Positions 43,068 through 64,000 are shown, counted from the stretch's first letter. The stretch is DNA of 64,000 nt from an uncultured Actinomycetes bacterium (GCA_963751565.1 CAVVVA010000013.1:28902-92901), one strand, 5' to 3'. Notes: generated by a model not told the origin, from the sequence alone. Numbers and translations are program-made.

Positions 43068-43143
43068 GGGCCGCTAGCTCAGTTGGTAGAGCACCTGACT
43101 TTTAATCAGGGTGTCGTAGGTTCGAATCCTACGCGGCCCACCA
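43068..43143 (+). tRNA. tRNA-Lys (anticodon UUU), CCA encoded
   Basis: 7-bp acceptor stem GGGCCGC/GCGGCCC, D-arm 'tagctcagttggtagagc', anticodon stem-loop 'cctga-cuUUUaa-tcagg', T-arm 'gtaggttcgaatcctac', discriminator A and a genomic CCA. Confidence 0.95.
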
Positions 43144-44931: not shown

Positions 44932-46260
44932 GCTGATCTCCCTGACGCGCGTCTGTCTGTGCAAGCAGCTTCGCTCTGGGCGGGCAGGCCGGCAACGCGA
45001 GGGCAGGCACCAGAAGCACGAAATCCGCGCAGAGCTTGAACCTGTTCGGTGCGCCGAAGCGTCGGCAGCCGGTCGGCGGCAAGCATGCGGTGCGGCCACT
45101 TCTCGGCGTCAGCCGGTCTGGCAGCGGTGATGTGTGCGAGGGAATCTGTGCTGCTCGCCGTGGACGTGAGGAGTCAGATTCCCATCGCATCCAGGCGCTT
45201 TCAAGGGACCCCGTGTGCGGGCCATGGGGACCGGCAGCGCTGGGAGCGAATCTGCCACACCAGACGGCTAGTCACGACGGCGTTGTCAGCAACGGCTACG
45301 TGCAATCCCCGGCACGGCCTCGCCGATCTTGACCGCGTGTGGCTTGAGGTGTAAGCCGCACCCATACGAAACGGGCAAGAGTCGCACCATCACGGTAGTT
45401 GAGGACGCGCCGATCCGCCGGCTGTGTTTGCGGTCACCTGCTTATCCGGCGGGGAGCGACTGGCGAGACCGACCTCAAGGGCTGGTCCTCGTGCTTTTCG
45501 GGACCGAGCAGCTGTCAGAGGTGTCAGAGGCGCCCGCAAGGGCAGGGGGGTAGCGTGTCGGGTGCACCGTCTCGTGTAGGTGAGCGACGCTTTCGTCCGT
45601 TGTCGCCATCGCCGCTGCTCACAGACCTCTCGCCACGAGGAGCACCTGAGGCTTGGCGGCCAGAGAGGCTTGGCAGCAAGCCATCCGCAAGGCTGATCGG
45701 CCTGAAGGGGCCGGGTGGTGCCGAACCCCTGAAGTCAGTCCACTTCAACGCACGCTTCTCGACAACAAGTGGGTCTGTGGGGCCGGCGCTCGGCCGGCAG
45801 CGTTGGCCTGTCGTCGGCCAAGACCCTGACCGCGCACGGGTTTGTCGGCAACATGGTCTGTGCCCTGGACGCGATCTGGCGTCGCGTTTGCCAGCCGGAA
45901 AGGAGATTGGCAATGTTTGGAGGTGCCCCAATTAGGCTTGCAACGGGCGTGGCCGCTGTGGCCCTGGCCATGGTCGTGGGGATGGGCTTGGCCTCGCCTG
46001 ATTTCGCTTTCGCAGCGGCCAAACCCGTCGTTACCCATGTCAGTCCGGCCACTGGTTCGACCCTGGGTGGCACGACCGTAAGAATCAGCGGCAAGCACTT
46101 CATGGCGAATGGTCACAGTTTGGTGAAGAAGGTCAGGTTTGGAAAGAGAGCTGCAACGCACGTTCATGTGCGTTCCAAGGGCCGGATCACTGTCACCGCT
46201 CCTGTCGGCAAGGGCACCGTAAACGTCACCGTGACCACCACGGCCGGCACGAGCGCGAAG

Positions 46261-46820
46261 GTCTCGGCCGACAAGTACACCTATCGCGCGCCGGCTGCCC
46301 CCACGGTCACCAACGTCAACCCAAACGGCGGCCCAATCGCCGGCAGCACCGCCGTGACCATCACCGGCACCGGCTTCAGCGGTACCCCCACGGTCCACTT
46401 CGGTGCCAACGCAGCGACCAAAGTCGAGGTGGTCTCCGCCACTGAGATCACCTGCACCAGCCCGGCCGGTGCGGCGGGCACCGTGGACGTCACCGTGACC
46501 ACCACGGCAGGCACGAGCGCAAAGGTCTCGGCCGACAAGTACACCTATCGCGCGCCGGCTGCCCCCACGGTCACCAACGTCAACCCAAACGGCGGCCCAA
46601 TCGCCGGCAGCACCGCCGTGACCATCACCGGCACCGGCTTCAGCGGTACCCCCACGGTCCACTTCGGTGCCAACGCAGCGACCAAAGTCGAGGTGGTCTC
46701 CGCCACTGAGATCACCTGCACCAGCCCGGCCGGTGCGGCGGGCACCGTGGACGTCACCGTGACCACCACGGCAGGCACGAGCGCAAAGGTCTCGGCCGAC
46801 AAGTACACCTATCGCGCGCC
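46261..46820 (+). repeat. perfect 264-bp tandem duplication (2.1 copies), each copy one IPT/TIG domain
   Basis: 46261-46524 equals 46525-46788, and a third copy starts identically at 46789-46820. The ORF track shows identical 87-aa translations for 46281..46544 and 46545..46808. Confidence 0.95.
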
Positions 46821-47054
46821 CGCTGCCAGCAAGCTGGTGGTCACGACACAGCCGGTCGGCGGGGTCAGTGGCGCCACGCTCGCCACCCAGCCGGTGGTGA
46901 AGATTGAAGACTCCGCGGGCAACGTGGTTTCGAGCAGCGCCACGATCACGGTGACCTCCTCGGCGGGCAGCACGCTGGGCGGCAGCCAGGCCGCCGGACT
47001 AGCCGCCACCGGCGGCGTGGCCACCTTCTCCAACCTCACCCTGGCGGGGCTCGT

Positions 47055-47068
47055 CAACTACCAACTAC
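47055..47068 (+). repeat. 7-bp tandem duplication CAACTAC-CAACTAC causing the frameshift
   Basis: Deleting one unit restores '...LAGLVNYTLTFAASGLKSATSSPTSVTLAIG...' and joins ORF 45769..47121 to ORF 47093..47626. Confidence 0.85.
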
Positions 47069-48470
47069 ACGCTGACCTTCGCCGCGAGCGGATTGAAGTC
47101 GGCCACCTCGAGCCCCACTAGCGTGACCCTCGCAATCGGCACTCCCTACGGCGGCGGCGTAGTCGCCTACATCCTGCAGTCCGGAGACCCTGGCTACGTG
47201 GCCGGACAAACGCACGGCTTGATCGCTGCCACGGTCGACCAAAGCACAGGAATCATATGGGCACTCCCGGCCTACCAAAGCACTGCTGTAGGAGGGACAG
47301 GTACCGCAATCGGGACCGGCTTGGCAAACACGAACGCGATCATCCTTCAGAACGGCGTCGGCACCACGTACGCAGCCGGTCTGGCAAGAGCCTACACCGG
47401 TGGCGGCTACGCCGACTGGTACCTGCCCAGCAAGGATGAACTGAATGAGCTGTACCTTAACCGAGTCGCAATCGGCATGTTTGAGTCCTGGTCGACCTCC
47501 TACTGGAGCTCCTCCGAGGCCCTTTTTGACAGCGCGTGGACTCAGGACTTCGCCAGCGGCGACCAGGGCGAGAACGGCCACTACAAGTGGGGCGTGAGCA
47601 GAGTGCGTGCTATCCGAGCTTTCTAGCCATGTATCCGTTCACCTATTGACGGGGGGCGCAGAAGGCTTACCGAATCGGCCAGGAGCCGTCGTTCTTGGCC
47701 TCCATTGAGCACAAGGTGGATAGGTAGGAGTCCGCCACCACGCTGCCGGAGGGCTTATCCATGGCTTCGTGTCGGCGCCCCGCTTGCAATCGGCAACGGC
47801 GCCATCCTGCTTGGCGTGGCCCTCATGGCGCTGACCTGGATCCTACGGCCGCGAATCTTCAAGCGCCGGCCTGAGTTGGTCGCAGACGAGGTCCGGGACG
47901 ATGCTTGAAATCACAAGGACGAACCTGCGCATGCACGCCTTCACCTTGGCGCGCTTCTTCTCAGACAGACACATCACCGTCGAGATCTGGCCGCAGAAGA
48001 AGTGGCTCATCCTCGCCGAAGCTTGATCAACTCTGCCAGCCGCGCCCAACGGCCGACGGTCGTCAGCGCCCGCCAAGCGCAGCTGAACGAGCTGAAGGGT
48101 TCGAGCGCGACCTTGGTCGCAAGCGCCGGAAGGGCCTTAGCCTCAAGGGCCGGAGGTCACCTCGCCATCTGAGTGCCTCGGCCCTTCCGCCCACGCTTGC
48201 ACGCCGCCGACCACGGGGTGCCGGCAACTCCACAATCAAAGCACGACCCCGCGGGCCCTCACAAGCGTTCGATCTCGCGGAGTGTCTGGCGGCATCGCGT
48301 CGGCAGAACCGCCTTGTGCAGCGATATCTCGGCCGTCACCGGTCTCGCACTGATGTGCGCCCGCATTACACCCGCCGACGGCGACAAGCACGTCCTCGTG
48401 TCTGCGGCCGCCCGAACGCTCAGCGACCTCTCAGCTGCTTTTCAGCGCATCCTTGGCTCAGGCGACGATA

Positions 48471-49415
<945 letters not shown>

Positions 49416-49614
49416 GTGACGCAGAGCCGGTCGTCGGCGCTGACCGTGCCGCTGAATGTGGCGGAGCCCTCGCCCCTGATTCTCAGCTCGTTTTCACCCT
49501 CTTCTCATCCGAAGTTCAAAGGCGACGGTCATGATGGGGAGGAGCAACATGCTCGTCGATGACCATGATTGCTGCGACTGCCCACGGAAAGCCACCACAG
49601 ACGAAGGGCCTGAC

Positions 49615-50052
49615 ATGACGAGTTTCACATATGCCGTGACCGTCCCTGCGAGCGTGAGCGCGGGGTCTCTCTGCCCCGACAGGCCGCTCGCCGTATCGAT
49701 GCGCCCGTCAGAGTTTGCGGCCGAGCTACTGTGGGCGACCGCGCGCGTTGCTGTGATCGCGCTGCGCGGCGAGATCGACGCCTACACGGCGCCGCGCTTC
49801 CGCGAGGCCGCCGAACGAGCGTTGCAGCGGGGCGCGAAGTCACTCGTCGTCGACCTGGGCGAGGTGGAGTTCATCGATGCAACTGGCCTGGGGGTGGCTG
49901 CGCAAGCCGCAAGGCGTCTGAGTGCGGGAGCCGTCGCAGTGGTGACTGCGCGCCGTTCGGTGGTGCACATCCTGCGCCTCGTCGGTCTCGACTACGTTCT
50001 GGAGGTCTGCGAGACGCGCGAGCAGGCGCTGCGCGCGCTGCCTGCCGACTGA
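49615..50052 (+). CDS. STAS-domain anti-sigma-factor antagonist (SpoIIAA/RsbV-like)
   Basis: 'VIALRGEIDAYTAPRFRE.........SLVVDLGEVEFIDATGLGV' followed by 'ILRLVGLD.VLEV'. The start is uncertain (49531 or 49615). Confidence 0.7.
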   Translation: MTSFTYAVTVPASVSAGSLCPDRPLAVSMRPSEFAAELLWATARVAVIALRGEIDAYTAPRFREAAERALQRGAKSLVVDLGEVEFIDATGLGVAAQAARRLSAGAVAVVTARRSVVHILRLVGLDYVLEVCETREQALRALPAD

Positions 50053-50295
50053 AGTCAGCCTCCGACACCAGTGGCGCCCACTTGCGGGGCCACCGCGCGC
50101 CGAGCGGTCCTTTGGCCCTGCAAGAAAGCGCTGGAGAGAGGCGGGAGTACCGGCATGGTGCACCGCTTCATACGACATTCTCAGCTGATGCTGACAGTAG
50201 TCTCACCGAAGAGTGACAGAGTGTGCAAGGCACCTCAGCGTGAGGCGTACCCCTTGCGCCCCGCCGCCAGGTCCCTTTGACCCGGGGACCTCTCA

Positions 50296-50331
50296 GGCCC
50301 GCCGCCTCTGGGTCCGTGGAGGTGGCGGGCC
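50296..50331. repeat. REP-like GC hairpin, copy 1
   Basis: 'ggcccgccgcctc-tgggtccgtg-gaggtggcgggcc' forms a 13-bp stem with one G-T pair. The same stem sequence recurs at 59202-59237. Confidence 0.6.
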
Positions 50332-50685
50332 GCCCACCTTTCGCAGCACCGTGCCGCGAGTGCTCCCGTTGGCATCGTGTCGGGTTGCATCCGTGGTTGG
50401 AGGAACTGGGATGAGGTCTGTTCTCCCCGCCTGAGTCGACATCGGCGGCTTTCGCAAGCAAATGCCGGGCTTGGCGGGACTCCGCAGTGGCCAGTGTCGC
50501 GAGCAGATCGGGGACTCCCTCCTCTTTTGGCTGACCCACCCATCTCTAGGTGAATCCTCAGGTCCCGCCCAGCCAATCACAACCAGCGACTCCTACACTG
50601 TTCTCGTCGTCAGCGACTCGCAGGAGGGCCGACACGCGAAGGTCGGGAGACCCCCTCGAGCGCGCCTCGTGCAAGGAGGAATCTC

Positions 50686-50916
50686 GTGAGAAAGCTGAGC
50701 TTCGCAGACGTGCGTGCCGCCGGCCTACCTGCCCACCTCCAGTCAACGTACGTGACCTACGAGTACCGGCCCCTTGGAGACGATGTCGCCGTGCGGCTCA
50801 CCACCGCTCGCAAGGCCCACGTCTGCACCACCTCACGCATGCCCGAGACTGGCTGGTTTCACAATGAGGGCTGTCCTTGTCCCTACTGCCGGGCGACAGA
50901 GGATGTCCTCCGATGA
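50686..50916 (+). CDS. hypothetical small Cys-containing protein (76 aa)
   Basis: GTG start lies 7 nt after a strong RBS AAGGAGG. C-terminal 'HNEGCPCPYC'. No family recognised. Confidence 0.45.
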   Translation: MRKLSFADVRAAGLPAHLQSTYVTYEYRPLGDDVAVRLTTARKAHVCTTSRMPETGWFHNEGCPCPYCRATEDVLR

Positions 50917-51098
50917 AGGACGAGCTCGCCCCGCCGGATGTGAAGGGCATGCGCGCAAGGCGCCGTCCCGATGCGCGCCACAGGCGGCGCCGGGCGGCCA
51001 CTGCCGCGCCCGCGCCGCCCGACGACGAACGGGAGAAGCTGGCCCTCCTTGAGTTGCTCCTCCTCGAACGGCCGGGACCTCAGCCAGACGACGGCTAG
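50913..51098 (+). CDS. hypothetical small charged protein (61 aa)
   Basis: The ATG overlaps the preceding stop (ATGA at 50913-50916). The product is Arg/Pro/Asp-rich and of low complexity, so support is weak. Confidence 0.25.
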   Translation: MKDELAPPDVKGMRARRRPDARHRRRRAATAAPAPPDDEREKLALLELLLLERPGPQPDDG

Positions 51099-51108
51099 TG
51101 AGACGTAG

Positions 51109-53053: not shown

Positions 53054-53259
53054 GCGCCCCACTCGACCCGTTTCGGGCCATCTTGGCCAGTGCCGCTTCA
53101 AGCCCAGCCTGCTGCGGCGTTCTCTGAGGTGTGCGTGGTCGAGTGCGGAGTGCATCAGGCTGCTTCGAGACCGGCTCCAACGTCGCCCGTCGTACACCCC
53201 CTGTGCCGCGCCGCAGGCAACGGGAGTCGCCGGTGACGGCACGCTTCTTCAAAGTCAAC

Positions 53260-53287
53260 TCTCAGCCCGGTCCCATGGCCGTCTCAG
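53260..53287 (+). promoter_or_regulatory. phased direct-repeat operator (TCTCAG-N5-TCCCAT-N5-TCTCAG) with -10-like TAACCT 10 nt downstream
   Basis: Hexamers sit at 53260, 53271 and 53282 (11-bp phase). TAACCT is at 53298-53303 and GTG at 53339. The module is paralogous to 57747-57774. Confidence 0.55.
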
Positions 53288-53338
53288 GCACTAACGGTAA
53301 CCTGACACTCAGCAGAGAACCCACACAGGAGCTTTGAA

Positions 53339-53695
53339 GTGATGGACACAAACAGATCCTGGAGGAAGCTATTTGCCTGGCGACCAGGGCCAGCGGCAAC
53401 TAAAGGCAAGGTGCGAGACAGAGAGTCCCTCTCAACATACGAGCTGCGCGAGCACTGTCTGAGGCGTCTGCTCAGCCAGGGCATGCCGCTCTGGAGTGAG
53501 GAGCCAGAACACTGTGACGGCTGCGGCCGCGAGCTGCTTCTCGGCGAGCGGGCACGGCTCATGTGTCGCGACGATGAGCTTCTGCTCGCCTGTCCGCTCT
53601 GTGCGCAGCGGCTCCTCGGCAAGGGCTACCTTGCCGTCAGCGCGGATGCCCAGACCGACGCCCCCGGGCAGGGACGTCTCTCGCTCGCCGGTTGA
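53339..53695 (+). CDS. hypothetical zinc-ribbon protein
   Basis: 118 aa. 'CDGCGRELLLGERARLMCRDDELLLACPLC' gives a CxxC...CxxC arrangement. RBS is AGGAG. No family recognised. Confidence 0.4.
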   Translation: MMDTNRSWRKLFAWRPGPAATKGKVRDRESLSTYELREHCLRRLLSQGMPLWSEEPEHCDGCGRELLLGERARLMCRDDELLLACPLCAQRLLGKGYLAVSADAQTDAPGQGRLSLAG

Positions 53696-53752: not shown

Positions 53753-55116
53753 TTGGCGGGGTTATCGTGTGTGGCGCTGGCCGTCCTTACTGCGGTAGCC
53801 TGGCCCGCGACCGCTGCAGCCGCGACGCGGCCGGACAGCCACACGCAGCCGCTCGTCAGTACGCAGCCGCTGGTCGGTTCGCAGCCGCGCCTCGGTGAGC
53901 ACGCGCTGGTCGAAACGCCGATGACCTCGGCCAACTGGTCGGGCTACGATGCGACCGGCGGTCCCTTCACCAGCGTCACCGCGACTTGGACCCAGCCGCG
54001 CATCCGGTACGCCGGTGTGACCTCGACCGATGTCGCCTTCTGGGTCGGGCTCGACGGCGACGGCTCCGACACCGTCGAGCAGATCGGCACCGAGGGCTAC
54101 AGCGAGGGCGCCGTCGGTTAACGATGCCTGGTATGAGGTGTATCCGGCTGCTCCCGTCACGCTCGGCATGACGATCCGGCCCGGCGACCTGCTGACCGCC
54201 TCCGTGACCGAGTCGGGCGGGGCAACCTTCAACCTGGCGCTCGTCGATCACACGAGCGGTGAGTCGTTCCACACGGCATAGACGATGAGCAGCCAGCCGG
54301 CACTGGCATCAGCTGAGGTCATCGCCGGGGCGCCGCCGAGCGACGACGGCGATGTCATGCCGCTGGCCAACTTCGGCCTTGTGCGGTTCAGCGCCTGTGC
54401 CTTCAACGGCCAGCCGATCAGTGCCTTCAATTTCAACCAGATCGCCATGGTCTCCGCCAGCACGGGCGCGACCCTGGCGGCCGCTCAGGCGCTGGGGGCC
54501 GACGGCGCCAGCTTCATCGTGGCGAGCGACCTCACGGCGCCGACCACAAAGGTCTCGGGTGCCGGTGTGGCCTGGCACGACAAGCCGGTGACGCTGCACG
54601 TTCACAGCGAGCGACAACGCTGGCGGCACCGGGGTGGCCTACACCGAGTACTCGCTCGACGGCGGCGCGATCTGGACCAAGGGCCGCGCCGTCACCATCT
54701 CCGCGCCCGCCGACCACGCAAACGACGGGATCCACACCGTGTTCTACCGCTCTGCCGATAAGGCCGGCAACCTGGAGAAGACCAGAAGCTGCCAGGTGAG
54801 GATCGACACGTGCCGCCCGACACCGATCGCCAATTGGTCGGCCGCCACGATCCCAGGCGAGCGCACCGCCCTGCGCTTCTATGTGAGCGACCCGCGCCCG
54901 GGTAGCCCCACAGCGACGGTGACGATCAGGATCCGCGACGCTCGCGGCAAGCTCCTGAAGAAGACCGTGCTTGCGGCGATCAAGGTCGACCGTACCCAGA
55001 ATTACGTCTTCGTCTGCACGCTCGCCACGGGCACCTGCCGGTTCACCGTCGGGGCGACCGATGCCGCCGGCAACCCGCAGACGGCGACGGCCACCAACAC
55101 GCTGGTCGTGCGGTAG
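53753..55116 (+). pseudogene. peptidase G1 (eqolisin/scytalidoglutamic peptidase-like) with C-terminal Ig-like/OmpL47-type domains; two frameshifts plus an in-frame TAG
   Basis: It starts with a signal peptide. 'SANWSGY......FTSV.A.W..P' and 'AFWVGLDG....VEQIGTE' are in frame 2. 'DAWYEVYP' is in frame 0 and stops at TAG 54279-54281. '...SAEVIAGAP......PLANFG.V.F' continues in the same frame. 'AYTEYSLDGG.W......HTVFYRSADKAGN.E' is in frame 1. Confidence 0.7.
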
Positions 55117-55186: not shown

Positions 55187-56029
55187 TCATGACCTGCTCG
55201 TGGATACCAAGCCCACGATGAGCGCCGCCGCTGGCGGCGCCGTCGCACAGGACCGTCCCCCCGACTCACGAGGGGCCGCGCTCTCCTGCATCGCCGGGAC
55301 GCGCGCAGGATATCCAGACAGAAAAGCGGGGGCCGGGGCGTCTTCGACAGGGCGCGCATCGCAGCTTGCCACCGTGCCGGCGTCGAGCCACAGCCGGCGT
55401 GAAGCCCTCTCGGCGACCCGGCTGTCGTGGGTCACCACGATGATGGTCTGAGCGCGCCCGCCCCAGAGCTCCTCGAGCAGGGCGACGATCTCGTCGCGCG
55501 TGTGTTCGTCGAGGTTGCCGGTCGGCTCGTCGGCTAAGATGACGCGCGGCGCGCGCACCAGCGCCCGGGCGATGGCGACGCGCTGCTGCTCGCCGCCCGA
55601 GAGCTCGACGGGGACATGGCGGACACGGTCCGCGAGGCCGACTTCGGCGAGCGCCGAGCGTGCCCGCTCGGCCCGCTCGGCGGAGGGAGTGCCGAGCGGC
55701 ACCAGGGCGGTCTCCACGTTCTCCTGGGCGCTGAGCGTGGGGATCAGGTTGAACGCCTGGAAGATGAAGCCGAACGCCTTGGCGCGCAGACTGCCGAGCT
55801 GAGCCTCGCGCATGGTGGCGAGGTCGTTGCCCTCGAAGCGCACCGCGCCCGAGGTCGGGCGGTCGAGCGCCCCCAGCATCTGCAAAAGCGTCGTCTTGCC
55901 CGACCCGGTCGAGCCCTGGATGGCCAGGAACTCGCCCTCGGCGATCGAGAGGTCGATGCCGTTTAAGGCTGCCACCTTCTTCTTTGTGCGCTCATAGCGC
56001 TTCGTGACGCCTTGTAGTTCGTAGAGCAT
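55187..56029 (-). CDS. ABC transporter ATP-binding protein (MacB/LolD-type)
   Basis: Walker A 'GSTGSGKTT', Q-loop, signature 'LSGGEQQRVAIARAL', Walker B 'ILADEPTGNLD' and H-loop 'VTHD'. It has a C-terminal extension of about 50 aa. Confidence 0.9.
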   Translation of the reverse strand: MLYELQGVTKRYERTKKKVAALNGIDLSIAEGEFLAIQGSTGSGKTTLLQMLGALDRPTSGAVRFEGNDLATMREAQLGSLRAKAFGFIFQAFNLIPTLSAQENVETALVPLGTPSAERAERARSALAEVGLADRVRHVPVELSGGEQQRVAIARALVRAPRVILADEPTGNLDEHTRDEIVALLEELWGGRAQTIIVVTHDSRVAERASRRLWLDAGTVASCDARPVEDAPAPAFLSGYPARVPAMQESAAPRESGGRSCATAPPAAALIVGLVSTSRS

Positions 56030-56051: not shown

Positions 56052-57473
56052 TTAGTCGACCCGACGCAGGGCGTCGGCGGGACTCAGACGCGCGGCACGC
56101 CAGCCGCCTAGAGTCCCGGCGACCAGGGCACCGGCCAGGGCGAGCGCGACAGCCAGTCCCACCAGCTGCGGGCTGATAGCCGCATGCAGGTAGACAGTGA
56201 CTGAGTTGGCCACGCTGGCGACAACCGCGCCGGGACCCGACTGCGCGGTTGTGCCGCCGGTGCTTGCGACCGTCGCCTGCAGGCTCGGCGAGAGCCGGCC
56301 GATGACCTTGGTGGCCAGGAACGCCAATGCGACGCCAGCGAGACCGCCCGCGATCCCCATGACAGTCGCCTCACCGAGCACCTGGGAGACGACCCGCCGG
56401 CTGCGCCAGCCCAGCGCCTTGAGTGTGCCGAACTCGCGCACGCGCCGGCCCACGGCTGACAGTGTGAGCAGGCTGGCCACGGCCACCGCGGCGATCATCG
56501 CCGCTGCGGCGAGCCACTTGCCAAGCTCGTTCGCCAGCTTGGAGGCGCTGCTGAGCGAGCCGCTGACCTGGTTTGCCAGGTCCTGGGCGGTGGTCACCGT
56601 GGCTCCCGAGACGGTATGTTCGATCTCGGTCTTGACCGTGGCAATCTCGGTGGCGCTGGTCGCCTTGACGTAGATCTGGTTGACCTCGCCCTTCTCGTCG
56701 GCGATGGCCTGCGCTCGGACCAAGGGCATGTAGAGGTTGGCCGAGGAGGCCGCCGACTTGCTGATGCCGATGATCTTGAACGACACGCCAGCGATCTTCA
56801 TGGTGTCGCCCACGGCGATGCTCTTCTGCTTGGCGTAGCCGGCATCCACAATGATGACCTTGGCGTCACTCTCGCTTGAGGCGAATGTGCGCCCGCTGGT
56901 GATGGTCGCCGAGCTCAGCGGTCCGATGCCCTGCTCGGAGACGCCGACGCCGCTGATCGTGAAGCTGCTGATCTTGATGGGCGCCTGGCTGGGTGTGGCC
57001 GAACCGCTGCTCGACGTGGAAGGCTGCTTGGTGACGCTGGTGGAGGAGCTCGTGCCGGCGACCTTGGCGAACTTGCCGCTCACCTGCATCGACGACAGCG
57101 TGAGCCCGCCGACCGCCGCGCTCACGCCGTGCAGGGCGCTGATCGAGGTGACCTTGGTGTCAGAAACAAGGGCCAGGCCGGTGGTGGTCGTGACGGCGTC
57201 TCGCGAGAAGCTCTGGCCCTGCTTCTGCTTGGTGCCCGGGTTCATAGCGAACCGCTGAGGGCCGCCCGAGCCGCGCTGCGCGCTCTTGGTGACGCTGATG
57301 TCGGTGCCCACCCCGTACAGCGAGTGGAGCACCTGGTTTTGGGCGTCGTGCACGCCGCCGGCGGTCGCCGAGACGGTCACCACCAGGCAGATGCCCAGGG
57401 CCAGCCCGAGAGCCGTCAGGGCTGCCTGGCGATGACGACGGCGTAGCTCGCGAAACAGGTACGTTAGAAACAC
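56052..57473 (-). CDS. FtsX-like ABC transporter permease (MacB-type, large extracytoplasmic domain)
   Basis: N-terminal 'FRELRRR...ALTALGLALG' TM1, a Ser/Thr-rich external domain of about 250 aa, and a C-terminal three-TM FtsX domain ('GTLKALGW'). GTG 57473 is preferred over 57515. Confidence 0.8.
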   Translation of the reverse strand: MFLTYLFRELRRRHRQAALTALGLALGICLVVTVSATAGGVHDAQNQVLHSLYGVGTDISVTKSAQRGSGGPQRFAMNPGTKQKQGQSFSRDAVTTTTGLALVSDTKVTSISALHGVSAAVGGLTLSSMQVSGKFAKVAGTSSSTSVTKQPSTSSSGSATPSQAPIKISSFTISGVGVSEQGIGPLSSATITSGRTFASSESDAKVIIVDAGYAKQKSIAVGDTMKIAGVSFKIIGISKSAASSANLYMPLVRAQAIADEKGEVNQIYVKATSATEIATVKTEIEHTVSGATVTTAQDLANQVSGSLSSASKLANELGKWLAAAAMIAAVAVASLLTLSAVGRRVREFGTLKALGWRSRRVVSQVLGEATVMGIAGGLAGVALAFLATKVIGRLSPSLQATVASTGGTTAQSGPGAVVASVANSVTVYLHAAISPQLVGLAVALALAGALVAGTLGGWRAARLSPADALRRVD

Positions 57474-57746
57474 ATCGATCCTCCAGTGGCTTGCTTGACG
57501 GATGGTGTACTGCACTCACTTTGCGCGCCTCGCTTGAGGCATGCCGGTGAGCCCGTTGAGAGCTTGCTGAGAGATCCTGAGCCCAAGCTGTGTGTAGCTG
57601 AAGTTGGCGCCGGCCGCCCTATTGCAGTGCTCAAGCGGCAAGGCATCGCCCCGTCAGGCACCGGCTGTGCCTGTCGCGAGGGCTCCGAAAAGACCCGAAA
57701 ACACCGACGTGAACCGACAGCAGCGGCGCGCTTCGTCACAGTGAAC

Positions 57747-57774
57747 TCTCAGCCCGGCCTCACGGCCGTCTCAG
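57747..57774 (+). promoter_or_regulatory. phased direct-repeat operator (TCTCAG-N5-CCTCAC-N5-TCTCAG) with -10-like CAGGTT 10 nt downstream
   Basis: Hexamers sit at 57747, 57758 and 57769. CAGGTT is at 57785-57790 and GTG at 57826. The spacing is identical to the 53260 module. Confidence 0.55.
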
Positions 57775-57825
57775 GCGCCGGTGGCAGGTTCACGCTCGAC
57801 AGAAACGCCACGCGGGAGCTGGCGA

Positions 57826-58737
57826 GTGACGGAGCTCAACAGAAGACGTTCGCGAAGACGGCTCAGTCGTCGCCGCAAGGCCGGCCTCGGGCGCCTGGCC
57901 GTCCTCATTGCGGTCGTCGTCGCGGTCGTGCTCGCCGTGGCCGTCATCGGGGGCGCGAATGGCTCGCCTGTGAGGGGCTCGGCGCGCCACAGGAGGGATC
58001 GCACCGTCACGGCGCCCCACTTCGTGGCCCATCCGCAGCCCGTGCCCATCCTTGTCTATCATCACGTCCTGCCCAGGGAGCGAGGGCCGCGGCTGCTCTA
58101 CGCAAGCCCATCCGAGTTTGCCGCTCAGCTTCACTACCTCAAGCGTCATCACTACCAGGCGGTCACCCTGCGGCAGGTCTACGAAGCCTGGACCGGCCAG
58201 GGCTTGCTGCCCGCACATGCCATCGTCATCAGCTTCGATGACGGCTACGTCGACCAGCTGCGCATCGCCGCGCCGCTGCTGCGTCGCTACCGCTGGCCGG
58301 CAGAGCTCGACCTCATTCTCGATGCCCTCTACCGCGGGTCGCACGCGCCCGCCACGCGCGTCACTGTGGCGATGGTGCGCAAGCTGCTGAGCGAAGGCTG
58401 GGAGCTTGAGTCCCACACCGTCACCCACCGCGACCTGACGCTGCTTGCGGCCGGCGACCTGCGCCGCGAGCTTGTCGATTCGCGCCAAGGTCTGCAGGAG
58501 ATCTTCGGTGTGCCGATCGACTTTCTCTGCTACCCCGGCGGTGACTACAACGCGCGCGTCATCGCCGCGGTGCGCCGCGCTGGCTACCTGGCCGCCACAG
58601 GCACGACCTTCGCGGCAGCCACGCCCCAGCAGCTCTACGCACTGCCTCGCATCTACTGCTACTGGGGCGAGTCGCCGGCGGTCTTTGCCCGGCGCCTGCG
58701 TGTGACTCTGGCAGCGGCACACCGGGTGGGCGCCTAG
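57826..58737 (+). CDS. membrane-anchored polysaccharide deacetylase (NodB/CE4)
   Basis: TM helix 'LAVLIAVVVAVVLAVAVIGG', 'YHHV', 'ISFDDGY' (NodB motif 1) and 'SHTVTH' (motif 2). The start is set at GTG 57826 (RBS GGGAG), by homology of the leader with the 53339 gene. Confidence 0.8.
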   Translation: MTELNRRRSRRRLSRRRKAGLGRLAVLIAVVVAVVLAVAVIGGANGSPVRGSARHRRDRTVTAPHFVAHPQPVPILVYHHVLPRERGPRLLYASPSEFAAQLHYLKRHHYQAVTLRQVYEAWTGQGLLPAHAIVISFDDGYVDQLRIAAPLLRRYRWPAELDLILDALYRGSHAPATRVTVAMVRKLLSEGWELESHTVTHRDLTLLAAGDLRRELVDSRQGLQEIFGVPIDFLCYPGGDYNARVIAAVRRAGYLAATGTTFAAATPQQLYALPRIYCYWGESPAVFARRLRVTLAAAHRVGA

Positions 58738-59269: not shown

Positions 59270-61479
59270 TCAGCAACGCAACGGCGTTAACGTGCAGCCC
59301 TCTGGCCTTGGGGGCGAAGAGGTGCCTGGGGTGGCCGACGCAGGTACCGCTAGGGCTTGGTCGTGGGGTGGTGTCGGGGTCGTGGGCGTGGGGGTGGTCG
59401 GTGTGGGGGTAGGGGTAGGCGTCGGCGGGGCGGCCGTTATCGTGGCCGTCGGCGTCGGGGTCGGCTTCTTCGAGGCGTGTGGTGAGCTCGAAGGACTGGG
59501 CAGCGGCGACGAGGTGGCGTGGGCGCCCGCCAGGGGCTGAACGGCCAGCTCACCACGGCGAAGTCGGGGTGCGCGGCATCGGCCAGCGCCGCCGCCGTGA
59601 ACTGCGCCCACATCGGCGCGCAGTAGATGCCCCCGAAGGCGCCGCTCATCGGCAGATTGGCGTTGATGTCGCCCATCCAGACGCTGGTCGCAAGCTGCGG
59701 TGTGTAGCCGACATACCAGACGTCCCAGTTGTTCTCGGTGGTGCCGGTCTTGCCGGCGCGCGGGTAGGGAAAGGCGGCCGCCGTGGTGGCGCCCGTGCCC
59801 CGGCTGGCGACCTGCTCGAGGACCTGGGTGACGGTCGAGGCGACACCGGCCGGGATGGCGCGATTGCCCACCGTTGCCGGACGCCAGAGCACCCTGCCGC
59901 TGGCGCCGACCACCTTGACGACCGCCTGGGGTGAGTGGTGGATGCCGCCGTCGGCCAGCGTCGCGTAAGCGTCGGCCATCTCCAGCGGCGTGACGACCGA
60001 GGTCCCCAAGGTGATCGAGGGCACGGCCGCCAGCGGGCTGGTGATGCCCATGGCGTGGGCGACCCGTACGGTGTTTGCCGGTCCCACGTCGACCGAGAGG
60101 CGGGCAAAGACGGCGTTGTCTGAGATCACCGTGGCCTGGGCTATGGTCTCGGGCCCGCCGGGCCCGTCGCCGTGCACGACCCAGGGCGCCGCATAGGGTC
60201 CCATGGGGATGACCACCGGGCTCTGCGAGGAGTAGTAGGTGGTGAACGGGTCCAGGCCCCGTTCGACCGCCGCCGCCAGCACGAACGGTTTCATCGCCGA
60301 GCCCGGCTGGCGCCGGGCCTGCGAGGCCAGGTTGAACTGCTGCTTGGCGAAGTCAAGGCCGCCGACCATCGCCCGGATGTAGCCGGTGGTGGGGTCGATG
60401 GCTACCAGGGCGGCCGAGGGCTTGAAGCCGAAGTCAAGCGGCGAGACGGTGTTGCGCACGACGTCCAGGGCGTCGCTTTGCCAGGCGGAGTCGAGACTCG
60501 TGTAGACGCGCAGGCCGCCCTCGAAGACCTGCGCATAGCCGTAGCGTTTGACGAGCTCCTGCGTGACGTAGTCGACGAAGTAGGCGGCCGGGAGCACGCC
60601 GGTGGTGGTCAGGGGATGGACGCGCAGACCCGCTCGCTGGGCGCGGCGCTCCTGGGCCGGCGGTGATGTAGCCCTGGCTGGCCATGTCGCTGGAGCACCA
60701 CGTCGCGCACCTGGCGGGCGTCGGCGGGGTCGTAGATCGGCGAGTAGCCGCTGGGAGTCTTGGCGGCAGGCCGGCGAGCAGCGCCGACTGGGCCAGCGTG
60801 AGGCGGCGAGGCGTCTCGTGGAAGTAGGTCTCGGCGGCCGCCTCGACCCCGTAGGCGCCGTCGCCGTAGTAGACGGTGTTCAGATAGGCGGTCAGGATGC
60901 GATCCTTGGACCAGCGGTCCTTGAGCTCCCAGGCCAGGATCGCCTCGCGCAGCTTGCAGCGTGAGGTCTGCGTCATCCGCCGAGATAGGCGTTCTTGACA
61001 TACTGCTCGGTGATCGTGCTGCCACCCTGCACGGCGCGGCCGGCCGCGAGGTCGGCGAGCGCCGCCCGGGCGACCCCCTGCAAGTCGATGCCGTGAGTCG
61101 GAGTAGAAGCGCTTGTCCTCGATGGCCACGGTGGCCTGCTTCAGGACAGCGGGAGCGCCGAGCTGGGCACGATGACCCGGTTGACGGCGCCATGCAGCTC
61201 GGCCAGCAGCCGGCCCTGTGCGTCGTAGATCTTGGTGGTCTGGGCGGTGGCCGAGCTCTCCAGATGGCCGAGCTTGGGCAGGTTGCGCGACAGGGCGTAC
61301 ACGGCGCCGGCGGCCAGGCCGATGACCGCGACCACCAAGACGATGAGCGCCACTACGAAGATCTTCACGATGCGCAGGCGCGCGGCGGCGCGCGCGGCGC
61401 GCTGCCTGCGTCGCCGGCGCGGGCCGGGCAGCCCGACCCCCGACGAACGCTCGCCGCCGGCGCGCCCTGAGTTGCTCAT
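59270..61479 (-). pseudogene. class A penicillin-binding protein (GT51 glycosyltransferase + transpeptidase + Pro/Thr-rich tail), at least seven frame changes
   Basis: N-terminal TM anchor (61141..61479). GT51 motifs 'AIEDKRFY', '[10 protein letters not shown]...[15 protein letters not shown]', '[47 protein letters not shown]', '[14 protein letters not shown]' and 'MASQGYIT' are scattered over all three frames between about 61150 and 60600. The transpeptidase domain ('SAMKPF', 'SDN', 'KTGTT') is one intact ORF, 59437..60597. The PT-rich tail is in yet another frame (59270..59611). Confidence 0.8.
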
Positions 61480-61686: not shown

Positions 61687-61887
61687 TCATTGTGCGGTGC
61701 GGGAGTCGTCCTCAGAGGGCCGGCTAGCTGCGACCTGCCGCAAGTCGCGCCTGCGGCGTGGGCTCTGTGGGCTGCTCGCATCCGACGCTTCGGCGAGCGC
61801 CCGCCCATCTTCACCTTGGATGAGGTCGGCGAAAGCCAGCCTGAGCTCGATGGCGTGGATCAGTTGCACGGCCTCTACGCTGTCCAT
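61687..61887 (-). CDS. speculative leaderless small ORF (66 aa) directly downstream of the phased-repeat operator
   Basis: ATG at 61887 lies 7 nt after a -10-like TAGACA, which lies 10 nt after the last repeat unit. No RBS and no recognised family. Confidence 0.2.
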   Translation of the reverse strand: MDSVEAVQLIHAIELRLAFADLIQGEDGRALAEASDASSPQSPRRRRDLRQVAASRPSEDDSRTAQ

Positions 61888-61910
61888 GGCTGACTGTCTA
61901 CTCCCGGCGG

Positions 61911-61949
61911 CTGAGACCGCACTGACAGCAAGCTGACAACCTGCTGAGA
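61911..61949 (-). promoter_or_regulatory. four direct-repeat units T(C/G)TCAG at exact 11-bp phase (candidate OmpR/PhoB-family response-regulator operator)
   Basis: On the plus strand, CTGAGA at 61911, CTGACA at 61922, CTGACA at 61933 and CTGAGA at 61944. The site is 149 nt upstream of the response-regulator start at 62098. Confidence 0.6.
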
Positions 61950-62097
61950 CGCCCCGCGCAACGTCTGGGCAACGACCGAGGGTTCTTCGGTCGCAGACGC
62001 GCCTGGCGCCCGGCAAGACATTCACAGGAAGTTAACAGTCGGCTTTGAGCTGTCGTCCAGCTACCGGTGCGATACTGTACGGCAGGAGGTGGTCATC

Positions 62098-62799
62098 GTG
62101 ACCTCAAGTGGTGGCTCCCAACACATCCTCGTCGTCGATGACGAGCCGTCGATCGTTGACGCGGTGGCTACATCACTGCGCTACGAGGGATTCGACGTGC
62201 GTGAGGCGAGCACGGGGCGCGGCGCTTTGGACTCGGCCAAGGAACGGCCCCCCGACCTGATCGTACTCGACGTCATGCTGCCCGACTTCGACGGCCTTGA
62301 AGTGACACGGCGGCTGCGGGCGCTCGGCATCGAGGCGCCGGTGCTCTTTCTCACGGCTCGCGACTCTGTAAGGGACAGGATCGCCGGACTGTCGGTCGGC
62401 GCCGACGATTACGTCACCAAGCCCTTTGCTCTGGCGGAGATCGTCGCCCGCACCCGCGCGATCCTGCGCCGCACGTCAGGCGAGCCGGCAAGTGACCAGC
62501 CATTGCGCTTCGCCGATCTCGAGATGGACGAAGCCATCCACGAGGTACGCCGCGCCGGTGTGCCGATTCAGCTGACCATCACGGAGTACAATCTTCTCCG
62601 GTTCTTCCTGCTGAATCCGCGTCACGTGCTCTCCAAGATGCAGATCCTCGACCACGTCTGGCACTACGACTTCCAGGGCAACGCGAACGTCGTCGAGACC
62701 TACGTCGGCTACCTGCGCAAGAAGCTCGACCCACACGGACCGCCGCTGATCCATACGATCCGCCAGGTCGGCTACATCCTGCGCGACGCCACCGTCTAG
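62098..62799 (+). CDS. OmpR/PhoB-family response regulator
   Basis: Receiver domain ('ILVVDDEP', 'DLIVLDVMLPDFDG', 'LTA', 'KPF') plus a winged-helix trans_reg_C domain ('LT..EY.LL..F..NP..V.S...IL..VW', 'YV..LRKKL', 'I.T.R.VGY.L'). GTG 62098 lies 8 nt after AGGAGG; the ORF-track start 62089 overlaps the RBS. Confidence 0.9.
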   Translation: MTSSGGSQHILVVDDEPSIVDAVATSLRYEGFDVREASTGRGALDSAKERPPDLIVLDVMLPDFDGLEVTRRLRALGIEAPVLFLTARDSVRDRIAGLSVGADDYVTKPFALAEIVARTRAILRRTSGEPASDQPLRFADLEMDEAIHEVRRAGVPIQLTITEYNLLRFFLLNPRHVLSKMQILDHVWHYDFQGNANVVETYVGYLRKKLDPHGPPLIHTIRQVGYILRDATV

Positions 62800-62809
62800 A
62801 GGCCCTGAG

Positions 62810-64000
62810 TTGTCGCTTCGCGGCCGTCTGCTGCTCGCCGTCGGGGCCGCCGCCCTGGTCGCCCTGGTCGCGGCCGACGTGACGACCTATTCATTGCTGC
62901 GCTCGTTCCTCTTTACACGGGTCGACCAGACTCTGGACACGACGTACTTCTCCGTCGCACCCATGCTGCAGGGAGGTCTCGCGCCGCCCTCGGGCTCGTC
63001 GCACACCCCCCCCAAGCCCTCTACCGGCTCCCTGTCGAGCCTGGCGCCCGGCACCTTTGTACAGGAGCGCTCCGCGAGCGGCGCCATCGTCCCCAGCATC
63101 GGCCAGCCGGCGTTTACACCAGGCGGCAAGACCTACACACCGAAGTTACCGGCGCGCATCGGCGCTCCTGCCAAACAAGGCCGCAGCGGGGGCGCCATCT
63201 ACTTCACGGTGAGCTCAACAAAGGCGGGTGGCCCCCAGTTCCGTGTACGGGTCGCGTCGCTGGACGACGGTCGTCAGCTCATCGTCGCCACGCCGCTGGG
63301 CGACACCGCCGGCACGCTGCATCGCCTGCTGGCGGTCGAGCTGGCCGTGACGGCGGCGGCCCTGCTGGCCGCCGGTCTGCTGGGCTGGTGGCTCGTGCGC
63401 GTCGGCCTGCGGCCACTGCGTGCCATGGAGCGCTCGGCCGACGCAATCGCCGCGGGCGAGCTCGACCAGCGCGTCGCCGGCGAGAACGACAAGACCGAAG
63501 TCGGCCGACTGGCCCGCGCCCTGAACGTGATGCTGGGCCGCATACAGACCGCCTTTGCCGAGCGGGATGCCACCGAAGCCGACCTGCGCGCCTCGGAGGA
63601 GCGCATGCGCCACTTCGTGGCCGACGCCTCGCATGAGCTGCGCACACCGCTGGCGGCGGTCTCGGCCTACGCGGAGCTATTCGAACGCGGGGCCAACCAG
63701 CATGAAGCGGACCTGGGCCGCGTCATGGGCGGCATCCGCGTCGAGAGCGGCTCGCATGAAGGCGCTCGTCGAAGACCTGCTGCTGCTCGCCAGACTGGAC
63801 GAGGGTCGCCCGATCGAACGGGAGCCGGTCGAGCTCGTCGGCCTTGCCGCCGAAGCAGTGCAGACGGCCGAGACGATCGGTGCGGCTTGGCCGGTCCACC
63901 TCGACGCCGACCAGCCGGTGGAGACCATGGGCGACCGCGATCGCCTGCGTCAGGTGCTCGACAACCTGCTCGTCAACGTCCGCACCCACACGCCGGCAGG
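62810..64000 (+). pseudogene. sensor histidine kinase (2 TM, HAMP, DHp H-box), +1 frameshift near 63749, 3' end outside window
   Basis: TTG 62810. TM1 'LLLAVGAAALVALVAADV', TM2/HAMP 'LAVELAVTAAALLAAGLLGWWLVRVGLRPL...AGEL..RV' and H-box 'FVADASHELRTPL'. After 'GIRVES' the reading must shift by one base to continue 'ARMKALVEDLLLLARLDEGRP...LRQVLDNLLVNV'. Confidence 0.8.

Follow-up and report, generated by a model that had tools for sequence, protein, structure and literature searches.

The PhoP protein of Mycobacterium tuberculosis (Rv0757) binds DNA as a tandem dimer on TCACAGC repeats, whose strict 4-bp spacer amounts to a period of 11 base pairs (bp). Bases are read through N212, V213, E215, S216, Y217 and Y220, with S216 touching the third base of the motif via water and R237 of the wing placed in the minor groove, and affinity is higher for three- and four-fold repeats (PMC4832192). 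In activation complexes seen by cryo-electron microscopy, two, four or six PhoP molecules are arranged as tandem dimers, the proximal dimer lying over the -35 element with region 4 of sigma displaced (PMC11825685). Here, we describe two promoter/leader cassettes of this kind, site A near 53.3 kb and site B near 57.8 kb, in a stretch of 64,000 nucleotides (nt) from an uncultured Actinomycetes bacterium (GCA_963751565.1, CAVVVA010000013.1:28902-92901), the whole of which is called the window below. Both are likely to be promoters that depend on the PhoP-type response regulator encoded at 62098-62799, with site B copied from an A-type cassette.

Other class II activators of the OmpR/PhoB type offer a similar picture. 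The Escherichia coli PhoB pho box, PmrA and GlnR share with the present sites tandem direct repeats about one helical turn apart that stand in for the -35 element, some 10 bp before the -10 hexamer, and are bound head-to-tail by dimers (PMC4832192, PMC10570014). The PhoB box, however, reads CTGTCAT, and the window regulator is not a PhoB equivalog, its score against the PhoB model being 207 bits compared with a cut-off of 296. In Corynebacterium glutamicum, Schaaf and Bott reportedly described in 2007 an 8-bp direct repeat, CCTGTGAAnnnCCTGTGAA, as the site of PhoR, and the reverse complement of this repeat is said to contain TCACAG. On that motif, the core and the period seem to be the same as in the window; the PhoR system controls phosphate-starvation genes.

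Sites A and B are both intergenic. The former lies between a DapB-like gene and the gene of a 117-amino-acid (aa) CxxC...CxxC protein, and the latter in the divergent region between a MacB-type ATP-binding cassette (ABC) operon and a polysaccharide deacetylase gene. The original prediction, made from the sequence alone, counted 57 identities in 82 gap-free positions (53260-53341 against 57747-57828) and at least 15 in the 19 nt immediately 5' of these segments, and a recount directly along the diagonal gave exactly 57 and 15. Among 300,000 random pairs of 82-nt segments drawn from the window, which has a G+C content of 70%, the mean was 23.8 identities (standard deviation 4.7) and the maximum 46. 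A 33-nt core, AACTCTCAGCCCGGnCnCAnGGCCGTCTCAGGC, occurs in the window at sites A and B only and is absent from shuffled sequences. The similarity runs from about 53220 to 53358 in site A coordinates and drops to background beyond.

The internal order of the two segments is also the same. TCTCAG at +0 and +22 with a degenerate unit at +11, a -10-like hexamer 10 nt past the last box (TAACCT in A, CAGGTT in B), a ribosome-binding site (AGGAG or GGGAG) and a GTG at +79 (53339 and 57826) were all seen where they had been predicted. The 11-bp phasing of the repeat was likewise described correctly, but three units are too few: each array has four, with TCAAAG at 53249 and TCACAG at 57736 placed 11 nt farther upstream. 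The GTG proposed as the start codon has a homologous GTG in use in locus L090 and at site B, but the start kept in loci L081, L084 and L088 is the ATG at 53342. The search found no sigma-70-type -35/-10 pair in the intergenic region of either site. A four-box array that ends 10 nt before the -10 hexamer matches the known architecture with four PhoP molecules, and, as far as in silico tests reach, all parts of the proposal that 11-bp direct repeats replace the -35 region in the manner of OmpR/PhoB promoters held. A promoter of the extracytoplasmic function (ECF) type, with AAC at -35 and CGTC at -10, was rejected because the spacer from AAC at 53257-53259 to CGTC at 53280 is 20 nt, compared with the required 16-17 nt or so, and because these elements are absent from the other arrays. 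No ECF sigma gene was found nearby, the sole nearby sigma gene (48495, sigma-70 family) having regions 1.2, 2, 3 and 4.

The same motif recurs around the regulator gene. When the window was scanned for TCTCAG-like hexamers repeated every 11 bp (three or more units, no more than three mismatches in total), eight phased arrays were returned, all of them within 48.4-62.1 kb, where about 0.07 would be expected from shuffled sequence; the motif is restricted to 14 kb around the regulator gene. Seven arrays are clear, with TC(T/A)CAG-like boxes at the 11-bp period, and the eighth, at 50179, is atypical. In six of the eight, a hexamer of the form nAnnnT lies exactly 10 nt past box 4. The background frequency of this form in the window is 0.023, and by our own arithmetic the binomial probability of six in eight at a fixed offset is about 4e-9. 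A four-fold hexamer at 61911-61949, originally placed beside the regulator gene, is a real array kept in L081 and L084, but it is on the minus strand and faces a divergent 66-aa open reading frame (ORF) and a penicillin-binding protein (PBP) gene, not the regulator gene. The regulator has an array of its own at 62022-62060, which was missing from the original list. A more distant relative, L090 (JGI contig Ga0075520_1001266), carries PhoP-type arrays at 1995 (-), 2918 (+), 3831 (+) and 6156 (+), within about 4 kb around the CxxC gene, so that the window is not alone in having its regulon clustered locally.

With regard to the regulator itself, a search of the PDB gave M. tuberculosis PhoP as the best match (272 bits, E 2e-80), ahead of PrrA (195), MtrA (158) and RegX3 (154), a comparison that covers only the paralogues with solved structures. 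By tblastn, the regulator matches PhoP at 57% of residues along 224 aa. The base-contacting residues N212, V213, E215, Y217 and Y220 and the wing R237 are kept, and S216 is replaced by threonine; in the recognition helix, NVVETYVGY aligns with NVVESYVSY of PhoP, so that five of the six base-contacting residues of alpha8 are identical. The third base of the motif is the position that distinguishes TCTCAG, found in most window targets, from TCACAG, and the S216 replacement and this third-base change may be linked. In orthologous loci, the regulator gene is followed by the gene of a HAMP-HisKA-HATPase kinase, and in the window by a kinase gene with HAMP and HisKA domains. Some sources assign the close orthologues (87-97% identical) to the Acidimicrobiales. 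In the window, the promoter of the regulator itself has the sequence TCACAG-N5-TAACAG and carries TCACAGCnnnnTCACAG, the published PhoP site; TCACAGCaagtTCACAG is kept before the regulator gene in L081-L085, together with GATGCT or CATGCT. These features support the assignment of the window regulator to the M. tuberculosis PhoP type, with PhoP as its predicted closest characterized relative.

Some doubt about ownership of the motif could nevertheless be raised. The box of mycobacterial MprA is likewise built as a direct repeat whose period is 11 bp, and the targets in the window (sigma factor, PBP, deacetylase, ABC exporter) resemble an envelope-stress regulon. The boxes could then belong to another OmpR-family regulator encoded beyond the window, such as an MprA- or CseB-like envelope-stress regulator, and the proximity of the PhoP-type gene would be coincidental or reflect cross-regulation. 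To weigh this, we turn to 80 loci of PhoP homologues, comprising relatives at most 61% identical to the window regulator, 1.5 Mb in all and read on both strands. Among them are true phoP genes of mycobacteria, at 91-97% identity to M. tuberculosis PhoP, and a continuum of actinobacterial homologues, including that of Corynebacterium in L033 (68% identical to M. tuberculosis PhoP). Under a strict scan (three units, at most two mismatches to TCTCAG or TCACAG) there were nine array matches, every one of them 53-154 nt upstream of the regulator gene and on its strand, and none elsewhere in the 1.5 Mb. Arrays stand directly upstream of the PhoP homologue in eight of the 80 loci, five of these being true mycobacterial phoP genes.

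This distribution suggests that the TC-N-CAG array is a family-wide autoregulatory site reaching beyond mycobacteria, and it argues against a foreign owner, as do the published PhoP site in the regulator's own promoter and the retained base-contacting residues. MprA/CseB identity had been the first suspicion and was dropped: the motif reported for C. glutamicum MprA, TKTTAAGAAM, is unrelated, the CseB model gives 187 bits, far under its cut-off of 350, and the PDB search led to PhoP. We therefore consider control by another paralogue very unlikely. TC-N-CAG arrays with the 11-bp period are seen 50-160 nt upstream of PhoP homologues in L043, L054, L059 (Streptomyces), L021 (Allokutzneria), L039 (Sanguibacter) and others.

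In the mechanism that we propose, four TC(T/A)CAG boxes at the 11-bp period would occupy the place of the -35 element and would be bound by two tandem dimers of the phosphorylated regulator, whose partner kinase would be the product of the gene starting at 62810. The bound dimers would bring RNA polymerase to a weak -10 hexamer (TAACCT or CAGGTT), transcription would begin about 7 nt past it, and the leader of about 30 nt would carry the Shine-Dalgarno (SD) sequence. The local regulon would have at least seven promoters, serving the sigma factor, the STAS protein, the CxxC protein with the G1 peptidase, the MacB-type ABC exporter, the deacetylase, the small ORF with the class A PBP, as well as the two-component system to which the regulator belongs.

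The direction of control could in principle be the opposite, with the same PhoP-type regulator occupying the -35 region of a constitutive promoter and blocking it. M. tuberculosis PhoP represses some promoters as well (PMC11825685), and the arrays that precede the STAS and regulator genes lie very near the start codons. However, neither the A nor the B region holds a -35-like hexamer that a constitutive promoter could use, and the fixed 10-nt gap from box 4 to the -10 hexamer is the geometry of an activation complex. In the repression complex described for M. tuberculosis PhoP, a second regulator competes with PhoP at a box farther upstream (PMC11825685). Repression is thus distinctly unlikely, and together, promoter geometry and the family-wide association leave both it and binding by another paralogue disfavoured relative to PhoP-type activation.

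Several points do weigh against the proposed mechanism. The -10 hexamers are weak, CAGGTT especially, and TAGACA of the array at 61911-61949 is without the final T. The 50179 array misfits the geometry, and the leaders would be only 5-15 nt for the promoter of the STAS gene and for the regulator's own. At 57% identity, the regulator stands at some distance from M. tuberculosis PhoP, and the comparison with mycobacterial paralogues left out MprA among others; in a genome of which 64 kb were seen, another OmpR-family paralogue may share or own the motif. Binding, direction of regulation and transcription start sites are all predictions.

How site B came to resemble site A can be judged from their relatives. 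A and B agree at 66% of the positions that lie outside the boxes, whereas either agrees at only 27-40% of them with the other well-anchored arrays of the window (about 30%), and the spacers CCCGG and GGCCG are common to A and B only. The site A cassette and the CxxC gene are conserved together in L081 and L084, where the CxxC gene adjoins the regulator gene and the 66-aa ORF, and also in the JGI contigs L088, L090 and L091. A scan of JGI metagenomes with an alignment of the CxxC protein found six loci, three of them with the cassette; the same metagenomes gave no match to the cassette core. When six cassettes are aligned, the columns that never vary are those of the boxes, of positions 2 (A) and 6 (T) in the -10 hexamer, of the AC just after it and of the SD. 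The deacetylase orthologues in L086 and L087 (80% and 65% identity), by comparison, are without the cassette, and in L086 the start of the deacetylase gene overlaps the end of the gene upstream.

Taken together, the comparisons mark site A as the predicted promoter that the CxxC gene had ancestrally. Site B is to be read as a copy because the deacetylase orthologues are without the cassette, while relatives keep the cassette of site A together with its gene. The copying of this A-type cassette would be old and would have taken place within the lineage, not by recent duplication, because B matches A at 71% and L081 at 74%, with A and L081 at 79%. The claim that the two sites are paralogous promoter/leader cassettes is therefore borne out by the identity outside the boxes and by the absence of the cassette from the deacetylase orthologues. 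What was copied would comprise boxes, spacers, -10 hexamer, leader, SD and start codon, and, set before the deacetylase gene, it would thereby have wired that gene into the regulon.

Convergence on a binding site, or remnants of a mobile element or of duplicated coding sequence, would account for the likeness of A and B with no duplication of a promoter. Just two copies are visible in 64 kb, and the similarity extends a few codons into both genes, as such an origin might lead one to expect. But spacers and leader common to A and B and not to other arrays are hard to reconcile with convergence. A miniature inverted-repeat transposable element or a coding remnant is not favoured by the 64 kb seen, as no inverted repeats flank either site, both sites are intergenic and the two downstream proteins are unrelated to each other. 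We regard this origin as extremely improbable beside a copied cassette. Matus-Garcia, Nijveen and van Passel are said to have described in 2012 the propagation of promoters in prokaryotes, as 'putative mobile promoters'. The cassette shares with these a promoter-bearing intergenic segment of about 120 bp before non-homologous genes of one genome, and differs in that the window has two copies, about 71% identical, and that SD and start codon were part of what was copied; with two copies at this identity, the copying would therefore be old and not an active spread.

The shared segment might instead work as RNA, with the boxes inside the transcript and a conserved leader, or a long-range helix, governing translation or stability. 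Over box 1, nine bases (53247-53255) are complementary to 53331-53339, which falls between SD and start codon. This complementarity is 9/9 in L081, where one A-U pair has become G-C by a double change, and 8/9 in both L084 and L088, and RNAalifold picks this helix. The register fits, however, at only six of nine positions in site B and four of nine in L090, and the 5' arm lies upstream of the predicted transcription start site, with no upstream gene on the strand of site B. No Rfam family matched the cassettes at the gathering threshold or at E<=1. Single-sequence folds were no better than shuffles (z of +0.98 and -0.47), and the consensus energy was just -8.5 kcal/mol with an unfavourable covariation term. 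Pairing was seen in 81.5% of cells compared with 77.5±2 in shuffled alignments, 33 of 500 of which equalled it. With folds at shuffle level and a candidate helix not clearly above controls, we rejected a structured cis-regulatory RNA; that the segment works in this way is highly improbable. At site B, the counterpart pairing is approximately 57732-57741 with 57826-57835.

The same helix allows one further, unlikely reading, in which the cassette would be a self-contained, portable module of about 120 bp with a built-in insulator, copied to recruit genes into the regulon. The 9-10 nt over box 1 would pair with the stretch from SD to start codon, and read-through transcripts would therefore be translationally silent; PhoP-started transcripts would be without the 5' arm and would therefore be the only ones translated.

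The interpretation of A and B as PhoP-dependent promoters places them within a well-understood kind of switch, here in an uncultured actinobacterium from soil, and the evidence supports predicted PhoP-box promoters of the M. tuberculosis type. The sites share with those of Rv0757 the 11-bp period, the TC-N-CAG core, four-unit arrays and proximal units at -35, as well as an array before the regulator's own gene (here TCACAG), a HAMP-HisKA kinase gene next to it and the base-contacting residues. They differ in that most window targets prefer T at the third base, with threonine for S216 in the protein, and in that the host is an uncultured Acidimicrobiales lineage known here from sequence alone. 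The window targets are cell-wall and sigma-factor genes clustered near the regulator, whereas those of M. tuberculosis are lipid, ESX-1 and phosphate genes.

Current understanding is not overturned by these results. They provide a testable, sequence-level prediction of a regulon for a two-component system of an uncultured Acidimicrobiales lineage, and a clean example of what would be regulon growth by copying of a whole promoter-leader cassette. They also suggest that the DNA code of the PhoP virulence regulator (TC-N-CAG, 11-bp period, tandem over -35, autoregulation) is common across Actinobacteria. Here, the code would govern a compact cell-envelope island of PBP, peptidoglycan-type deacetylase, ABC exporter, secreted peptidase, sigma factor and STAS protein. 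The features of the two cassettes, their genes and the other arrays are collected in Table 1.

Table 1. Predicted promoter elements, phased arrays and associated genes in the window (positions counted from its first nucleotide; TSS, transcription start site).
Feature	Position	Strand	Details
Site A, four PhoP-type boxes TCAAAG, TCTCAG, TCCCAT, TCTCAG	53249-53287	+	11-bp period; kept in orthologous cassettes L081, L084, L088, L090
Site A, -10-like TAACCT	53298-53303	+	10 nt after box 4; predicted TSS near 53310-53312
Site A, Shine-Dalgarno AGGAG	53327-53331	+	GGAG invariant in cassette alignment
Small CxxC...CxxC protein gene	53339-53695	+	start GTG 53339 or ATG 53342; conserved first target of the cassette
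Peptidase A4 (G1) gene with bacterial Ig-like domains, split by frameshift	53753-55116	+	Pfam matches
Site B, four PhoP-type boxes TCACAG, TCTCAG, CCTCAC, TCTCAG	57736-57774	+	array scan
Site B, -10-like CAGGTT	57785-57790	+	10 nt after box 4; predicted TSS near 57797-57799
Site B, Shine-Dalgarno GGGAG	57814-57818	+	sequence, cassette alignment
Polysaccharide (peptidoglycan-type) deacetylase gene, N-terminal membrane anchor	57826-58737	+	Pfam PF01522, translation
OmpR/PhoB-family response regulator gene, M. tuberculosis PhoP homologue	62098-62799	+	Pfam receiver and winged-helix domains
Histidine kinase gene, HAMP and HisKA domains, H-box SHELRTPL	62810-64000	+	TTG start; runs off the window; one frame change
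Array GCTCAG TCTCAG TTTCAG CCTTGG, then GATAAT (48467-48472)	48418-48472	+	upstream of sigma-70-family gene, ATG 48495 to 49415
Array TCTCAG TTTCAC TCTCAT GTTCAA, then CATGAT (49530-49535)	49481-49535	+	upstream of STAS-domain gene 49549-50052
Atypical array TCTCAG GCTGAC TCTCAC AGTGAC	50179-50217	+	mixed-orientation units; offset hexamer AGGCAC does not fit
Array TCTCAG TCTCAA TCACCG CCTCAA, then CAAAGT (57518-57523)	57534-57572	-	faces MacB-type ABC permease (56052-57473) and ATPase (55187-56029)
Array TCTCAG TGTCAG TGTCAG TCTCAG, then TAGACA (61895-61900)	61911-61949	-	faces 66-aa ORF 61687-61887 and class A PBP gene 59437-61479
Regulator's own array TCACAG TAACAG TTTGAG GTCCAG, then GATACT (62071-62076)	62022-62060	+	proposed autoregulation site

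As for the genes behind the two cassettes, the predicted targets stood for the most part: Pfam places a peptidase A4 (G1) behind site A and a PF01522 deacetylase behind site B, but the small CxxC protein, first called a zinc ribbon, matched no Pfam family. The CxxC gene and the peptidase A4 gene are probably co-transcribed, there being no array between them. The 66-aa ORF, likewise without a matching family in Pfam, recurs in L081 and L084, placed there between the CxxC and regulator genes, and is called as a gene in L084. It is probably leaderless because its start lies 7 nt past the -10-like TAGACA.

The atypical array lies in a stretch of about 1 kb, 50053-51108, without a recognizable gene, and Pfam searches of 50.05-51.1 kb found no gene downstream of it. 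Its units alternate between TCTCAG/TCTCAC on the plus strand and TGTCAG/TGTCAC on the minus strand, with a spacing of 22 bp within each set.

Three genes are split between frames, namely those of the class A PBP (59437-61479, -), the peptidase A4/Ig-domain protein (53753-55116, +) and the histidine kinase (62810-64000, +). These are probably errors of long-read assembly rather than pseudogenes because related contigs such as L081 have similar splits. Farther upstream, a c-di-GMP-II-GAG riboswitch (RF03169, 64.5 bits) at 45394-45483 (+) precedes an ORF at 45733-47121 (+), within which a 264-bp unit is repeated in tandem (46212-46827, 2.3 copies, 98% identical), and a transfer RNA gene (RF00005, 76 bits) is present at 43068-43140 (+).

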